Shown: positions 2,994 through 15,874 of the stretch, piece after piece
How the letters are laid out: every line of letters begins with the position of its first letter
How positions within the stretch are numbered: position 1 is the first letter of the stretch
Origin: Acidimicrobiales bacterium
GTDB taxonomy: Bacteria; Actinomycetota; Acidimicrobiia; Acidimicrobiales; JAUJNH01
DNA length: 39,631 bases
Reading direction: 5' to 3'
Assembly (NCBI GenBank): GCA_038199465.1
Contig: JBBPYZ010000172.1
Coordinates: forward strand, 1-39,631
The notes under the pieces: generated by a model
Told to the model about the DNA's origin: nothing
Seen by the model: only the letters and a program-made list of their open reading frames with translations
Database searches by the model: none
Program-made: the position numbers and the translations under genes

Positions 2994-4793
2994 ATGTTCA
3001 CGTGCAGGAAGTTGCCGGCGTTGATCGCCTGCCTGGCGGTCAGCGGCATCTTGTCCACGGTGGCCGCCGTGTCGGCGGAGGCAGCCGGGACGATCAGCTA
3101 CACCTACAGCGTGGCGACGCGAGGGGCCATCCGTTCAGGCGTCACCGACTTCGCCACCCGCGCCCAAGCCACGTTCGACGATCAGCGGGGCTGGGGACTG
3201 GGCGGATCCATCAGATTCGTCAGGGTCCCGAGCGGGGGGAGCTTCACACTGTGGCTGGCCCAGGCCAATCAGCTCCCCTCGTTCTCGTCCGGCTGCTCAT
3301 CGATGTACAGCTGCCGGGTCGGGCGGGACGTCATCATCAACGATGACAGGTGGAGCGACGGCGCCCCGGGCCTGGCCATGGGCCTCGACGACTACCGCGA
3401 CATGGTCGTGAACCACGAGATCGGCCACTGGCTGGGCTACGGCCACCGCACCTGCGCGGGCGCAGGTCAGCCGGCGTACGTGATGCAGCAGCAGTCGAAG
3501 GGCGGGGCCTACCTCGGGGGCTGCCTCCCCAACGCCTGGCCGCGGGCCGAGGAGCGCAACGCTCTGGCCTCGTCCCGAGGTGTCGCCATCCTTCCGCCGC
3601 CGCCGCCTCCGCCGCCCCCGGTCGACGCTTGCCTGCCGGAGGGGACGACCTTCACCCGGGCGCCCGCCCCGGCCGCCGTCACCCCCTCGGGGGGGCCCTA
3701 CGACCCGGTGAGCCCTACCCGCGTGCTCGACACCCGGTCGGGGCTCGGTGCTCCGGTCGGCTGCCTGGGCCCGGGCCGAACCCTCGATGTCGAGGTGGCC
3801 GGGCTGGCCGGGGTGCCCACCTCGAACGTGGGTGCGGTGGCGATCAACCTCACGGCCGTCAACCCGACCGACGGCGGCTACGCCACGGTGTCACCCACGG
3901 GTGGCCCCAACCCAGAGAGCTCGAACCTGAACTTCGGCCCCGGGCAGACCGTCACGAACTTCGCCATGGTGCCGGTGGGAGCGGCCGGTCGGATCACCAT
4001 CAGCAACGTCGGCGGCTACGTGTACTACCTCGTTGACGTGGTCGGGTTCATCCCCAGTGGGTCCAGCATCATCACCTTGGCGCCCACCCGCCTTCTCGAC
4101 ACCAGGGCCGGGGTCGGCGCCCCGCGCGCCCGAATCACCGCATCGCAGGAGCTGAACGTCCCGCTGGCCGGAGTCGTCGTGCCCACCGACGCCCAGGCGG
4201 TCCTCGTCAATCTCACGGTGGTCTCGCCCAGCTCCGCCGGCTACGCCACGGCCTTTCCGAGCGACGGCCCCCGTCCCGGCACGTCCACGCTGAACTTCGG
4301 AGCGGGGTCAACCGTCGCCAACTTCGCCCTGGCCAAGCTGGGAGGTGACGGTCGGATCAAGATCTTCAACGCCGGTGGCACCGCCGACTACCTCATCGAC
4401 GTGCTCGGCTACCTCGCCACAGGCTCCACCGTGACGACGCCGGCGCCGGCGCGGGTGCTCGACACCAGGATCGGCACCGGTGCGGCACAGAACCGGGTCA
4501 CCTCGGGCGGCACCGTCAGCGTGAACATGGCCGGGAACCCCGGGCCAACGCTGGCCGGCGGTGATGTGGTGGCCATCAACCTGACCGCCGCGGCGCCCGA
4601 TTCGGCCGGCTACGCCAGCGCGTTCGGAGGCCCGACACCGCCGGAGACCTCGAACCTGAACTTCAGCGGCGGCCAGACGGTGGCCGGCTTCGCCCTCGTC
4701 AAGCTGGGCAGCGACGGCCAGCTCAACGTCTTGAACGTCGGGGGAGACGCGGACTACCTCGTGGATGTTGCTGGCTTCATCCGGGGAGCGTGA
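2994..4793 (+). CDS. Secreted zincin-like metalloprotease (DUF3152-like N-domain) with poly-Pro linker and three tandem repeat domains
   Basis: GAAGGA RBS lies just upstream of the ATG. Sec signal peptide (…AVSAEA), HEIGHWLGYGH motif at nt 3414-3446, P9 linker at 3594-3620, then three homologous modules of about 118 aa. Confidence 0.85.
   Translation: MFTCRKLPALIACLAVSGILSTVAAVSAEAAGTISYTYSVATRGAIRSGVTDFATRAQATFDDQRGWGLGGSIRFVRVPSGGSFTLWLAQANQLPSFSSGCSSMYSCRVGRDVIINDDRWSDGAPGLAMGLDDYRDMVVNHEIGHWLGYGHRTCAGAGQPAYVMQQQSKGGAYLGGCLPNAWPRAEERNALASSRGVAILPPPPPPPPPVDACLPEGTTFTRAPAPAAVTPSGGPYDPVSPTRVLDTRSGLGAPVGCLGPGRTLDVEVAGLAGVPTSNVGAVAINLTAVNPTDGGYATVSPTGGPNPESSNLNFGPGQTVTNFAMVPVGAAGRITISNVGGYVYYLVDVVGFIPSGSSIITLAPTRLLDTRAGVGAPRARITASQELNVPLAGVVVPTDAQAVLVNLTVVSPSSAGYATAFPSDGPRPGTSTLNFGAGSTVANFALAKLGGDGRIKIFNAGGTADYLIDVLGYLATGSTVTTPAPARVLDTRIGTGAAQNRVTSGGTVSVNMAGNPGPTLAGGDVVAINLTAAAPDSAGYASAFGGPTPPETSNLNFSGGQTVAGFALVKLGSDGQLNVLNVGGDADYLVDVAGFIRGA
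3699..4784 (+). repeat. Three tandem protein-domain repeats (aa 236-353, 359-474, 479-597) inside CDS 2994..4793
   Basis: Each unit starts P-x-R-[VL]LDTR-x-G, has a central A[VI]x[IV]NLT…GY[AT]…P…S-x-LNF…Q/S-TV-x-NF, and ends DYL[VI]DV-x-G[FY]. Units aligned by eye. Confidence 0.8.
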
Positions 4794-9097: not shown

Positions 9098-10123
9098 CTA
9101 GGGCTGGGCCGGCTCGTCGGTCCCGACCGGGGCGCGGCGGAGGTGGTCGCGCAGGGCGATCTGGCCGGGATGGCCGGTGATGACGTCACGGAGGCCCTCG
9201 GCGCTGGAGTCGAGGTAGCGGCGGGTGGTGTCGAGGGAGGCATGGCCGAGGAGGGCCTGGAGCTCCACCACGTCGGCACCGGTCTGGAGGGCGTCGGTGG
9301 CGAAGGTGTGGCGCAGGGCGTGGACCATGGCCCCGGCCGGGATGCGGGCCCGGATGCCGGCCCGGGTGTAGAGCCGCTCGATCAGGTAGCTGATCTGGTG
9401 GGCGGCGAGACGGCGTCCCCGGGCGTCGACGAGCAAGGGGGTGGCGGGGTGGTCGAGGTCGTGCTCGGGAAAGCGCTGGCTGCGGATGGCCTGGTAGAGG
9501 GCGAGCACCCGTTCGAGGGCGGGGTCGACGGGGATGGTGCGGGCCTTGCCGCCCTTGCCGATGACCTCCAGGCGGCGGGCCCCTTCCGGCCCGGCGATCG
9601 ACGCCATGCCGAGGGCGACGGCTTCGCCTTCGCGGAGGCCCGAGACGAGGAACAGGGCGACGAGGGCGAGGTCGCGCTCGGGCCAGGGGGAGCGAGCCCC
9701 GCCGTCGACCGTGGCGGCAGTGGCCAGGAGGCGGGCGGCGGCGTCGTCGGCCTTGATGGCCTTGGGCGCCGAGTGGCCCAGTCGGGGCTTGGGCACGGCT
9801 GCCATAGGGTTGCCGTCGAGGAGGTCCTCGGCGACCAGGAAGTCGAAGAGCGACGACCAGGCCGAGTGGGCCCGCAGCAGCGAGGCGGCGGCGTGGTCGG
9901 CGGCCCAGGAGGCGAACCCGGCCCGCAGCGCCTGCTTGGTCAGGTCCTCGAGGCGCAGACCGGCGGCGCCCTCGCTGTCCATCCGGTAGGCCACGCCGTC
10001 GACGTCGGACCGGTAGGCCTTCAGCGTCCGAGCCGACGGCTTGGTCGCCCCCAGCTGGAACAGCCACGCCTCGATGATCTCTACCAGGGGAGAGCCGGCA
10101 TCGAGTCGTCGGAGAGCGGCCAC
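9098..10123 (-). CDS. Xer-type tyrosine site-specific recombinase/integrase
   Basis: 341 aa with a GTG start. SAM-like N-domain (TLKAYRSDV) and catalytic residues in GLREGE (R), GKGGKART (K), HALRHTFAT (HxxR) and LLGHASLDTTRRYL (H, Y). Confidence 0.9.
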   Translation of the reverse strand: MAALRRLDAGSPLVEIIEAWLFQLGATKPSARTLKAYRSDVDGVAYRMDSEGAAGLRLEDLTKQALRAGFASWAADHAAASLLRAHSAWSSLFDFLVAEDLLDGNPMAAVPKPRLGHSAPKAIKADDAAARLLATAATVDGGARSPWPERDLALVALFLVSGLREGEAVALGMASIAGPEGARRLEVIGKGGKARTIPVDPALERVLALYQAIRSQRFPEHDLDHPATPLLVDARGRRLAAHQISYLIERLYTRAGIRARIPAGAMVHALRHTFATDALQTGADVVELQALLGHASLDTTRRYLDSSAEGLRDVITGHPGQIALRDHLRRAPVGTDEPAQP

Positions 10124-10129
10124 GTCGCT

Positions 10130-10135
10130 ATCCTA
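10130..10135 (-). promoter_or_regulatory. -10-like TAGGAT box 6 nt upstream of the recombinase GTG (possible leaderless mRNA)
   Basis: The minus strand reads …TAGGAT-AGCGAC-GTG. TANNNT with 6-nt spacing is the mycobacterial leaderless geometry. Confidence 0.35.
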
Positions 10136-10162
10136 GTCTCGATAATGCTAGTTATCGAGACT
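10135..10162. promoter_or_regulatory. 28-bp perfect 11-6-11 palindrome: dif-like recombination-site candidate or operator
   Basis: AGTCTCGATAA-TGCTAG-TTATCGAGACT read directly. It is the most AT-rich spot in the window. The inner ATAA/TTAT match E. coli dif. Confidence 0.55.
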
Positions 10163-10285
10163 TACCTGCTGGCGGCGGACATCGTGCATCAGATGCAGGT
10201 AGCCCCCTGCTGAAGCATGTGCCCGCTGCGCTCCACCTGGCCGGCCGACGAGTACTCGGTGTCGGTGCCGCTGCATCGACAGCGA

Positions 10286-10828
10286 TCAGGGAGCGAAGTA
10301 GCCCGTAACGTCGACGATGAAGTGGGTTTGGGCGTCCGGGGTGCCGTCGCAGTACACCAGGACCGAGCCAGGGCCGGATTCGCTGTCGACGGCGATCCCG
10401 GTTGTGCCGCCGTTGGCGAGGTCCAACCCCGGAACCACCCAGTTGATGTTCGACACCGTAAAATCGTCAGGGTTGGTGCCGGCCGGTACCACACCCAGGA
10501 AACCCGCCGCCTCGGTCTGGGTGATGGTGAGGTTGAAGGTGACCGCCTGCGCCGTCGCCGGCACTCTCAGAGCCTTGCTCTCGTCCGTGATGATCTTCAG
10601 GCTCATGCCGACACCGGTCGCGATCTTCCCGTCGGGATCGTTGCGCGAGTCGTAGCTGCGGTAGGGGGTGACCGGCGTGTACCCCAGCCCTGCGGCTAGC
10701 GCCGGCGCGGCCGTGGCGACACCGGCGACGGTAGCGCCGATGGCGCCAGCGGCGACGGCCCCACCACGGGCGAGGAGAGATCGGCGGTCCATGCTCGGTT
10801 GGTTCTGCTGGTCCATGTGGTTGATCAT
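10286..10828 (-). CDS. Tat-exported protein with one copy of the LDTR…NLT…DVxGY domain
   Basis: ATG at 10828 (MINHMDQQNQPSMDRRSLLARGGAVAAG… is a twin-arginine signal ending in ALA). The mature part aligns by eye with the repeats of CDS 2994..4793 and ends FIVDVTGYFAP. Confidence 0.75.
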   Translation of the reverse strand: MINHMDQQNQPSMDRRSLLARGGAVAAGAIGATVAGVATAAPALAAGLGYTPVTPYRSYDSRNDPDGKIATGVGMSLKIITDESKALRVPATAQAVTFNLTITQTEAAGFLGVVPAGTNPDDFTVSNINWVVPGLDLANGGTTGIAVDSESGPGSVLVYCDGTPDAQTHFIVDVTGYFAP

Positions 10829-10986
10829 CCTCGCTTTAGGGCGCGCCGGGTCGGTGACTTGGTGGGTTCGACGGATGCCCCTTCGGAGAACGCAGGAGCG
10901 GGGCTCTTCCTGGCTTTCCGTACGGGCTGCTTGGACCCTCCGGGGGTGAAGTCGCTCCGAGAGACGCCGAGTCCTGGGACAGCCTG

Positions 10987-11310
10987 ATGCCGGACAAACC
11001 TCTTCGTCACGGAACTCCACCCTTCTTGATGAGACTGACGCTGACTCTAGGCGGGCTGCCCGCCGCTGTCGAGAGCATCCGCAGGGCGCATCTCACAGAG
11101 GGCGGCCATCGGCCCGCTCCGACGGGTGCCCAGAGCTGGAGACGACTGAGTGAGGAGAACGCGGCGTACGCCGCCGCAGCCGAGGCGTTCGACAGGCCCT
11201 TGGTCGCCGTCGACGAGTGTCTGCTCCGCGCCTGTGGTGCCGCAGGGATCGGGGCCATCCACCTCGATGACCTGAGCAAGCCGGGAGGCAGACGGCCCCA
11301 GGGGTGCTGA
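10987..11310 (+). CDS. Hypothetical small protein (weak call)
   Basis: 107-aa ORF with normal acidic/basic composition. The co-phased antisense ORF 11007..11279 has no D/E and looks like a shadow. No recognisable motif. Confidence 0.3.
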   Translation: MPDKPLRHGTPPFLMRLTLTLGGLPAAVESIRRAHLTEGGHRPAPTGAQSWRRLSEENAAYAAAAEAFDRPLVAVDECLLRACGAAGIGAIHLDDLSKPGGRRPQGC

Positions 11311-11340
11311 ATTGGGCGGTGTGCCTCCCGCGGCGGAGGG

Positions 11341-15019: not shown

Positions 15020-15874
15020 TCAGCCCAGGAGGCCGAGGATCCCGCCCGTGCCGCGGAAGGGCTGGGTGCCCCTCACCAGGGCTAGGCCGACGGGGGCGCC
15101 GTGGGTGCGGGCGTAGGTGAGGGCACGGGACACGTCGCTCACCCCGTTCGAGGCGGGGATGGGCAGGAGGGCCAGGGTGCTCAGCACGCCGACAGCTTGA
15201 CCCGAGGCGTTCAGGAAGCCGCTGCCGGAGTCGCCCGGTATGCCGGGCGTCACGGTGTAGACCGCTCGGGTCCAGCCGCCGCCCTCGTCGCCCAGGCTGA
15301 TCCCGATCTTTGGGCTGAGCTGGCTGATGCCGAGCCGCAGCGACGAGTTGCCGTAGCTGTAGACCGTCGACCCGAGGCCGGTGGAGGTGCCGAGCGCCGT
15401 GGGCCCGCCCCACACCGGCACCGACGGGTTCACCCGGGCGGCGTCGCCCGAGTCGAGCCGGACCAGGGCGAAGTCGTTGAAGGCGCAGGCGTCGGGGTCG
15501 CGCTCACCCGCCGCCTGCATGGCGACCCAGCTGCTGTAGGCGAGCGACCCGGGGCGGCTGGCTCCGCCCACCTGCACCGGGGTGCCGAGCGGCAGCGTCC
15601 CGCTGGTGCACCCGTTGGTGTCGGTGGCGGCGCCGGTGCTGGCGCAGTGGGCCGCCTGCCCGATGTAGACCGCCCCCGCTTCGTCGCTGAACACGAAGTT
15701 CGCTGTGCACTGCCCGCCGCTGGTGTAGGTCATCACGCCGGGGTGGATGGGGGCCGAGGCGGCCGGGGCCCAGGCCAGACGGGCCTGCGCTGGCGGGGTG
15801 AGGAGCGGGGAGGCGGCGAGGAGCAGGCTGGCCGGGGCGGCGACGAGCAGGGAAGAGCGGATCTTCATCTTCAT
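15020..15874 (-). CDS. Secreted S1-family (chymotrypsin/alpha-lytic-like) serine protease
   Basis: ATG at 15874 (MKMKIRSSLLVAAPASLLLAAS… is a signal peptide). Catalytic triad contexts AAHC, NDFALV and GDSGSG. Confidence 0.85.
   Translation of the reverse strand: MKMKIRSSLLVAAPASLLLAASPLLTPPAQARLAWAPAASAPIHPGVMTYTSGGQCTANFVFSDEAGAVYIGQAAHCASTGAATDTNGCTSGTLPLGTPVQVGGASRPGSLAYSSWVAMQAAGERDPDACAFNDFALVRLDSGDAARVNPSVPVWGGPTALGTSTGLGSTVYSYGNSSLRLGISQLSPKIGISLGDEGGGWTRAVYTVTPGIPGDSGSGFLNASGQAVGVLSTLALLPIPASNGVSDVSRALTYARTHGAPVGLALVRGTQPFRGTGGILGLLG

Follow-up and report, generated by a model that had tools for sequence, protein, structure and literature searches.

A perfect 28-bp palindrome lies directly upstream of the gene of a tyrosine recombinase of the Xer family in a stretch of 39,631 nucleotides from an Acidimicrobiales bacterium (NCBI GenBank assembly GCA_038199465.1, contig JBBPYZ010000172.1, positions 1 to 39,631 of the forward strand; the whole stretch is called the window below), and sequence comparisons indicate that it is probably the cognate core recombination site of this adjacent recombinase. 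Gene and site recur together in related genomes, the two arms of the site change in step around fixed inner bases, and signs of recombination at the site are found in relatives; these observations support the proposal, made in a first-pass annotation of the window, that a single recombinase and a single site make up a self-contained module here.

The + strand at 10135–10162 reads AGTCTCGATAATGCTAGTTATCGAGACT, i.e., two 11-nt arms, perfectly complementary to each other, with a 6-nt spacer between them (AGTCTCGATAA-TGCTAG-TTATCGAGACT; in the orientation of the gene, AGTCTCGATAA-CTAGCA-TTATCGAGACT). The perfect 11-6-11 arrangement on which the first-pass annotation was built is therefore present in the sequence, and the coordinates agree with the gap of 11 nt (10124–10134) that it gave between the palindrome and the GTG start codon of the recombinase (10123–10121). 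No other perfect 11-6-11 palindrome exists in the window (three others pair at 10 of 11 positions, all of them GC-rich), and no further ATAA-N6-TTAT core was found anywhere in the 39.6 kb. The search for further copies of the 28-mer, run on the window, gave a single copy: there was no second match at up to 3 mismatches, and none in 100 shuffles. The architecture is of the dif type, as had been proposed (28 bp, two inverted arms, 6-bp centre, AT-rich, non-coding), and the inner ATAA/TTAT occupy the same positions as in classical dif. The palindrome had also been described as the most AT-rich spot of the window; this holds at a scale of 60 nt (GC 0.50 vs 0.72 overall) but not at 28 nt, where a spot near 15861 is equally AT-rich. 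Minus-strand genes flank it on both sides, as previously noted. Rfam, tRNA, terminator and E. coli-type promoter scans were all negative.

The recombinase gave matches to PF00589 (Phage_integrase, 3.2e-22) and PF02899 (Phage_int_SAM_1, the SAM-like N-terminal domain, residues 17–99) in Pfam; the catalytic residues R164, K190/K193, H268, R271, H294 and Y303, all of which the first-pass annotation had reported as present, are invariant in an alignment of 22 homologues. The protein consists of the catalytic domain and the SAM-like core-binding domain, has no extra arm-binding domain and is predicted to have a Xer-like fold, as is usual for a simple, arm-less enzyme of the Xer type. NCBIfam scores (bits vs cut-off) were as follows: XerC (TIGR02224), the best match, 169 vs 335; XerD (TIGR02225), the second, 139 vs 330; NF001399, 134 vs 279; archaeal XerA (NF040815), 108 vs 220; XerS (NF003462), 79 vs 267, in the C-terminal half only; integron integrase (TIGR02249), 51 vs 265. 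The protein thus fails the equivalog cut-offs of XerC and XerD, scoring about half of each, and is a member of neither XerS nor XerA. The nearest sequence with a solved structure is that of E. coli XerD (8e-20); in a Foldseek search with the AlphaFold model (pLDDT 77; residues 274–311 of low confidence) the best matches were XerA (5hxy), XerD (1a0p) and XerH (5jjv/5jk0), and the Brujita integrase (5vfz) was also among the matches.

Homologues are numerous in metagenome-assembled genomes of Acidimicrobiales (60–91% identity) and bear in NCBI only the name tyrosine-type recombinase/integrase. Among 1.8 billion cluster representatives, 152 clusters were matched at E ≤ 1e-30; ten of the nearest relatives clustered at 50% identity (33–44% identical to the window protein) are all Xer-like and all lie under the XerC and XerD cut-offs, and no named member was found through the cluster members. 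The family is a distinct Xer-like clade, and not simply the local XerC or XerD, because the scores reach about half of the cut-offs and the nearest relatives likewise fall below them. The gene is chromosomal and conserved, usually with one copy per retrieved locus; in 2.9 million viral contigs the family gave a single partial hit and is thus nearly absent. No second Xer gene was seen in the retrieved loci, the only extra recombinases being two weaker, distant matches in a single locus (L065), and the classical xerC neighbourhood (dprA, rpsB) was not seen around the distant relatives.

Conservation of the pair in relatives, which the first-pass annotation had named as a check, was examined in 80 fetched genome loci encoding relatives of the recombinase (L-numbers below denote loci). 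The search required an 11-6-11 palindrome in which TAA-N6-TTA forms the core and the arms pair at 6 or more of 11 positions. Palindromes of this kind were found upstream of the gene in approximately 42 cases and downstream in 3; none of the downstream ones next to the gene in the 80 loci is of the ATAA/TTAT type. When less symmetric versions and the split or truncated sites of L008 and L010 are counted, approximately 37 of the 80 loci carry the site, at a distance from the gene of 11 nt to 3.8 kb; immediate adjacency, as in the window, is seen also in L004, L012, L021, L008/L010 and L081. Conservation is confined to the 28-mer, the flanking sequences being unrelated between loci. A metagenome scan with the 28-mer returned two contigs only, one of them already known and the other a deletion derivative.

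When 35 sites were aligned, ATAA and TTAT proved invariant, with coupled changes at the outer positions of the arms; perfect palindromes with differing arms occur, e.g., AGTCTCGATAA in the window, ATTCCGGATAA in L026, TTTACGGATAA in L044 and ATCTGGCATAA in L055. All seven variable arm pairs are altered on both sides, and the covariation score was 0.275, vs 0.104 for shuffled alignments (reached in none of 500) and at most 0.086 with slid partners. Within the largest clade, positions 4/25 and 6/23 consistently distinguish the two arms. Arms that are identical and co-vary argue for one protein species binding to both of them. They resemble the XerC arm of the actinobacterial dif (L013, ATTGCCGATAA; Frankia alni, CACGCCGATAA), and no XerD-type arm is present in the site. 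In most sites the asymmetric spacer points the same way with respect to the gene, its first base being C and its last A.

Signs of recombination at the site were found by comparison of close relatives. Over 4.8 kb, running from ctaD across the recombinase gene to the outer edge of the site (10162), the window shares 92.8% identity with L081; beyond this edge the two are unrelated. The arms of the two sites are identical at 22 of 22 positions and the spacers differ at 2 of 6. L003 shares with the window a cold-shock gene and an open reading frame of 133 codons further out; the segment beside the site differs, and homology with the window resumes at 11340. On the minus strand of the window's variable segment lies an open reading frame of 244 codons (10286–11020), whose product has a Tat-like signal (RRSLL) and matched no Pfam or NCBIfam family; a second, decayed site was not found at the far edge of this segment. 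Relatives whose recombinases are 83–91% identical have unrelated neighbourhoods on one or both sides.

The site of L008, TTTCCCCATAA-CCTACA-TTATGGGGACT, is interrupted exactly in the central region by an insert of 245 bp (3700–3975); the 7 bp ACCTACA stand on both sides of the insert, and its ends are 23-bp inverted repeats, TTGGGGGTATCCACTTAGCCGGC, resembling the arms of an attachment site. The site is intact in L010, a close relative. Such an arrangement would be the expected product of a circle with a palindromic attachment site that integrated by strand exchange across the overlap. The inverted repeat was found nowhere else among 135 loci, and the reconstructed attachment site is absent from the viral contigs. 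In L002, L005, L006 and L137–L139 two sites of like orientation, the distal one perfect and the proximal one decayed, enclose a complete toxin-antitoxin pair of the Xre(MbcA/ParS)-RES type (L002, 2744–3990; L137–L139, 8744–9990), and a toxin-antitoxin pair of the PIN type follows directly beyond the distal site of these two-site loci. Further two-site or site-plus-half-site arrangements are present in L001 and L003. At approximately 5960–6000 of L081/L082 18 bp between the palindrome and the ATG are repeated in tandem (TTATCGAGACTAGGGTGC twice), which has yielded a third half-site and a second –10-like hexamer, TAGGGT.

The first-pass annotation had pointed out that the palindrome touches a TAGGAT box of the –10 type, and this contact was confirmed and extended: the same geometry, i.e., a TANNNT hexamer with its first T taken from the site, approximately 6 nt, and the start codon, occurs in several lineages with differing arms (TAGAGT in L004 and L008/L010, TAATCT in L012, TAGCCT in L021, TATTGT in L002/L006, TAGGCT in L001, TACGGT in L003, TAGGGT in L081). 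Promoters consisting of a –10 box only and leaderless mRNAs are a known type in actinobacteria. The mRNA of the recombinase would accordingly be leaderless, and the site would occupy positions of about –12 to –39 relative to the putative start of transcription, on the –35/spacer part of the recombinase promoter. A recombinase bound at –12 to –39 should repress its own gene, and such autorepression is our suggestion for the window. The features are collected in Table 1.

Table 1. Features of the window around the palindrome (positions are those of the window).
Feature	Position	Strand	Remarks
Simple (arm-less) Xer-family tyrosine recombinase, 341 aa, putatively acting on the site	9098..10123	-	Pfam and NCBIfam matches, catalytic residues, predicted fold
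TAGGAT, –10 hexamer of the TANNNT type	10130..10135	-	first T is the last base of the site; followed by AGCGAC (10129–10124) and the GTG
28-bp core site	10135..10162	no strand	sequence, uniqueness, homologous sites upstream of orthologous genes
Core-site arms	10135–10145 (gene-proximal), 10152–10162 (distal)		on either side of the central region
Central (overlap) region	10146..10151		asymmetric, sets the polarity of the site; putative place of strand exchange (spacer comparisons, L008 insert)
Variable segment of lower GC, distal side of the site	10163..11340	no strand	GC 0.62–0.67 vs 0.72–0.77 around it; synteny break

In the mechanism that we propose, one monomer of the recombinase would bind to each of the identical 11-bp arms via the invariant ATAA/TTAT and the lineage-specific outer bases, two occupied sites would synapse as a tetramer, and strands would be cleaved and exchanged at the edges of the central region of 6–7 bp. 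The module would be chromosomal and vertically inherited in Acidimicrobiales, and over evolutionary time its site would have been a docking or rearrangement point for incoming foreign DNA, such as the small non-coding insert and the toxin-antitoxin pair described above; in the lineage of the window the bound recombinase would also repress its own leaderless promoter. The use of the site by a homodimer and the purpose of the module in the cell are what we infer from sequence, and resolution of dimers by the module is possible.

Several observations weigh against the assignment of the palindrome as the cognate site. The palindromy filter of the site search inflates the percentage of paired positions (the co-variation and the perfect palindromes with differing arms are less affected). 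Several relatives with an intact gene have nearby only a decayed site or none (L083–L087, L133 and L135, within 0.6–8 kb), and L136 has no site within 10 kb on either side of the gene; either the enzyme acts elsewhere in these genomes or the site is dispensable. Among the 80 loci, the more distant relatives (Solirubrobacterales and some Acidimicrobiia) have no adjacent site. The L008 insert may possibly be a transposon with terminal inverted repeats whose 7-bp target duplication happens to coincide with the spacer, a less economical explanation. The E. coli-type promoter scan found nothing at the site, the promoter being called by pattern only.

It is also conceivable, although we consider it doubtful, that the palindrome is the dif of the chromosome, i.e., that XerC/XerD have given way to a Xer system with a single recombinase, which resolves chromosome dimers at the terminus. 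The length of 28 bp, the 11-6-11 layout, the inner bases shared with classical dif, the symmetric co-varying arms, the non-coding and AT-rich character, the single occurrence in the window, the varying flanking genes and the insertions resembling those of Xer-exploiting elements all suit this reading, and the same criteria identified the dif of Legionella (PMC9765430); moreover, the gene is conserved, chromosomal, usually single among the retrieved loci and virtually absent from phage contigs, and it is linked to the site as in XerS/difSL. The terminus role considered in the first-pass annotation nevertheless found no local support. The checks of GC skew and of the polarity of motifs like the FtsK-orienting polar sequences (KOPS), both run within the 39.6 kb, showed no switch at the site: the skew is +0.054 to its left and +0.025 to its right and mirrors gene orientation, and GGGNAGGG and related KOPS-like motifs do not converge on it (the counts are tiny). 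Approximately 80% of the genes are on the minus strand on both sides, and those on the side of the recombinase, ctaC and ctaD included, point away from the site. For almost all genes of the window, on either strand, the skew at third codon positions is negative on the coding strand (C3>G3), so that the raw GC skew reports the orientation of genes and not the direction of replication; as a terminus test it is not informative, or speaks mildly against a terminus at best. When skew was pooled over 15 loci, the recombinase gene itself acted as a confounder, and the most strand-skewed 7-mers of the window look codon-driven. The decayed sites of close relatives with intact genes, the lack of any site within 10 kb in L136 and the splitting of the L008 site also speak against a dif. 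The classical dif pattern is of the type NNNNCCGATAA-N6-TTATGTCAAGT. For Acidimicrobium ferrooxidans, which has KEGG orthologues of XerC and XerD, the table of Kono et al. (PMC3025954; genomes chosen by KEGG XerC/XerD orthologues) gives for NC_013124 a dif prediction 0.5 degrees from the skew shift point; the published site appears to be 3 nt out of register, and re-registered by 3 nt it reads GCCGAGAA-GCGGTA-TTCTGTCAAGT, a good classical dif of the XerC/XerD type. At least part of the Acidimicrobiia therefore probably has XerC/XerD-dif. The broader proposal that a large part of the class has replaced XerC/XerD by a XerC-like homodimer, with a promoter-borne symmetric dif as dimer-resolution site, operator and docking site in one, is accordingly put forward only tentatively, as improbable as the dif reading itself.

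It is unlikely that the palindrome is an autoregulatory operator only, at which the recombinase or another dimeric protein represses the leaderless promoter with no recombination involved. Palindromes in promoters are typical of operators, the site would span about –12 to –39, and its last T begins the –10 hexamer in the window, L004, L012, L021, L008/L010 and L081. However, the palindrome does not stay with its promoter in relatives: the site lies 0.6–3.8 kb from the gene in about half of the site-bearing loci, in some of them (L043, L053) with opposite-strand genes in between, and promoter-like –10 boxes remain where the palindrome has decayed (L083, L133, L135). Neither the synteny breaks nor the insertions aligned with the central region would be expected of an operator, and the 11-6-11 form with ATAA-N6-TTAT is that of the core site of a tyrosine recombinase. 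Still less probable is the attachment site, relic or working, of an arm-less mobile element of the Brujita type, with gene and site as a domesticated or mobile int-attP unit. This reading draws on high-GC phage contigs of the same layout, in which a perfect ATAA-N6-TTAT palindrome stands directly upstream of an arm-less integrase gene: L088 (421–448), L090 (3950–3977) and L091 (4997–5024) carry GCTCTCGATAA-TCTGCC-TTATCGAGAGC between the portal gene and the gene of a 334-aa integrase, and L127 and L103 are similar. The arms of the L088/L090/L091 palindrome are identical to those of the window at 9 of 11 positions, the Brujita integrase is among the fold matches, and the flanks differ on one or both sides among relatives with 83–91% identical recombinases. 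Because high-GC phage contigs carry such palindromes upstream of arm-less integrases, the layout itself is an old theme. The near absence of the recombinase family from the 2.9 million viral contigs stands against a mobile origin, as do the lack of phage or conjugation genes near the site (7–13.5 kb examined), the lack of a second site on the far side of the gene and of an element bounded by two att sites, the stable synteny within subclades (SDR-queA-wHTH-recombinase and oxidoreductase-recombinase-Map), and the L090 phage integrase, which has no detectable similarity to the window recombinase. The scan of viral contigs with CGGATAAC-N4-ATTATCCG returned mostly an unrelated conserved low-GC phage sequence or near-chance matches, and only the few high-GC contigs are relevant. 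That the palindrome arose by chance, or is a hairpin that terminates transcription of the gene upstream, can be practically dismissed. The palindrome does lie 123 nt downstream of the stop codon of the 244-codon open reading frame, on the same strand, and folds as single-stranded DNA with a z-score of –2.35, but no random match is expected, it is conserved beside orthologous genes with unrelated upstream neighbours, its AT-rich stem has no T-run, no terminator was called and Rfam gave no match. An integron-like array was considered separately and rejected: there is one site in the window and there are at most 2 sites per 21 kb in the relatives, and the integron-integrase model scores far below its cut-off.

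The assignment as a cognate recombination site may be compared with systems already described. The difSL site is 31 bp long and has unequal arms, whereas the site of the window has 28 bp and identical arms. According to PMC2731167 and PMC2965235, XerS is a single Xer-type recombinase with its site immediately upstream of its own gene, and the same linked module, with the site directly upstream at 11 nt, is found in the window; unlike there, the protein is not a XerS by its NF003462 score, and terminus location and FtsK dependence, shown for XerS/difSL, have no local support for the window site. XerH/difH of Helicobacter and Campylobacter, archaeal XerA/dif and XerL/dif of Legionellales have likewise one recombinase and a near-palindromic site of approximately 28–30 bp, and XerA, XerD and XerH are the nearest predicted folds. 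The dif of Legionella is AT-rich and non-coding, with varying flanking genes and with insertions (PMC9765430), all of which are traits of the window-type site as well. The window recombinase differs from these systems in lying far below the family cut-offs (that of XerA included), in its taxon (class Acidimicrobiia of the Actinomycetota) and in a site that overlaps the promoter of the gene, and dimer resolution is here only a candidate function.

The actinobacterial XerC/XerD-dif, e.g., CACGCCGATAA-TGCACA-TTATGTCAAGT of Frankia alni (PMC3025954), has in common with the module the geometry, the ATAA/TTAT, a spacer ending in ACA/TGA and a XerC-type arm (xxxxCCGATAA), and XerC is the best NCBIfam match of the recombinase; the window site differs in that both arms are of the XerC type and the TTATGTCAAGT XerD arm is missing. 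A canonical XerC/XerD-dif site is not what was found, the arms being identical or co-varying, with no conserved XerD arm (TTATGTNAANT). Integrative elements exploiting Xer sites (IMEX) and the dif modules found on plasmids of Acinetobacter (PMC6449649, PMC12907356) resemble the two-site loci in that segments including toxin-antitoxin genes lie between Xer-type sites, one of them degenerate after integration; here, in contrast, the segments are chromosomal and stand beside the recombinase gene, with one or two sites per locus and no arrays, and their mobility is only presumed. The attP-int units of the type of mycobacteriophage Brujita are similar in having a two-domain simple tyrosine recombinase and a palindromic core site directly upstream; unlike them, the family of the window is chromosomal, with no surrounding phage genes and no attL/attR pair.

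A simple tyrosine recombinase with a core site beside its gene is known already (XerS/difSL, phage int-attP); the perfect co-varying arms, the promoter overlap and the insertions at the site are what distinguishes the present module. In the literature searched, no Xer/dif system has been described in Acidimicrobiia and no single-recombinase Xer module in Actinomycetota. Actinomycetota are treated as users of XerC/XerD, and single-recombinase Xer systems are to our knowledge restricted to a few groups (streptococci/lactococci, Epsilonproteobacteria, archaea, Legionellales). Acidimicrobiia, with a conserved one-recombinase, one-site module, would be a further, independent instance of such simplification, and the module, if it has indeed replaced XerC/XerD, would be the first single-recombinase Xer system in Actinomycetota; if the site is not a dif, one has to ask what function a conserved third Xer-like system serves. 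The arm variants changing in step with the enzyme would form a natural series for studying how tyrosine recombinases read DNA, and the insertions suggest an unnoticed entry point of foreign DNA in an abundant, poorly cultured lineage of soil and water. With its site on a leaderless promoter, the module may couple the amount of enzyme to the occupancy of the site in a simple way, and the 28-bp site together with the 341-aa enzyme is a compact candidate recombination tool for high-GC bacteria.

Other palindromes and unusual forms of the site were observed in some loci. L012 has, besides its cognate site and 3.4 kb upstream of it, another perfect palindrome of different sequence whose spacer is 7 nt long, GCGCGCGATAA-CCTAGCC-TTATCGCGCGC (512–540); the locus contains no second recombinase. 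In L005 (2362–2405, arms up to 19 bp), L002, L006, L014 and L029 the palindrome extends past the 28-mer with lineage-specific sequence, which may reflect palindrome-correcting replication errors or a role of the hairpin. Contigs of metagenome-assembled genomes begin at or near the site in L010 (position 1) and L048 (position 16); these may be assembly breaks caused by strain-variable distal DNA or by the palindrome itself. In L131 (1668–1760) an intact site, TGTCTCGATAA-CGAGAA-TTATCGAGACT, is fused straight to the final approximately 15 codons of a recombinase open reading frame (..PSQIALRHHLRKA), nearly the whole gene being deleted; the genomic context is different, beside a small HTH (excisionase-like) open reading frame.

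In one clade the SDR-queA-wHTH operon that precedes the recombinase gene has its own, separate promoter palindrome. A conserved AT-rich palindrome, TTTAGATAG-N6-CTATCTTTA, is located 50–80 nt upstream of the SDR gene, before the SDR-queA-wHTH-recombinase block (L011, L013, L016–L018, L023, L044, L046, L074, L076 and L080); it is probably the promoter/operator of that block, distinct from the Xer-type site.

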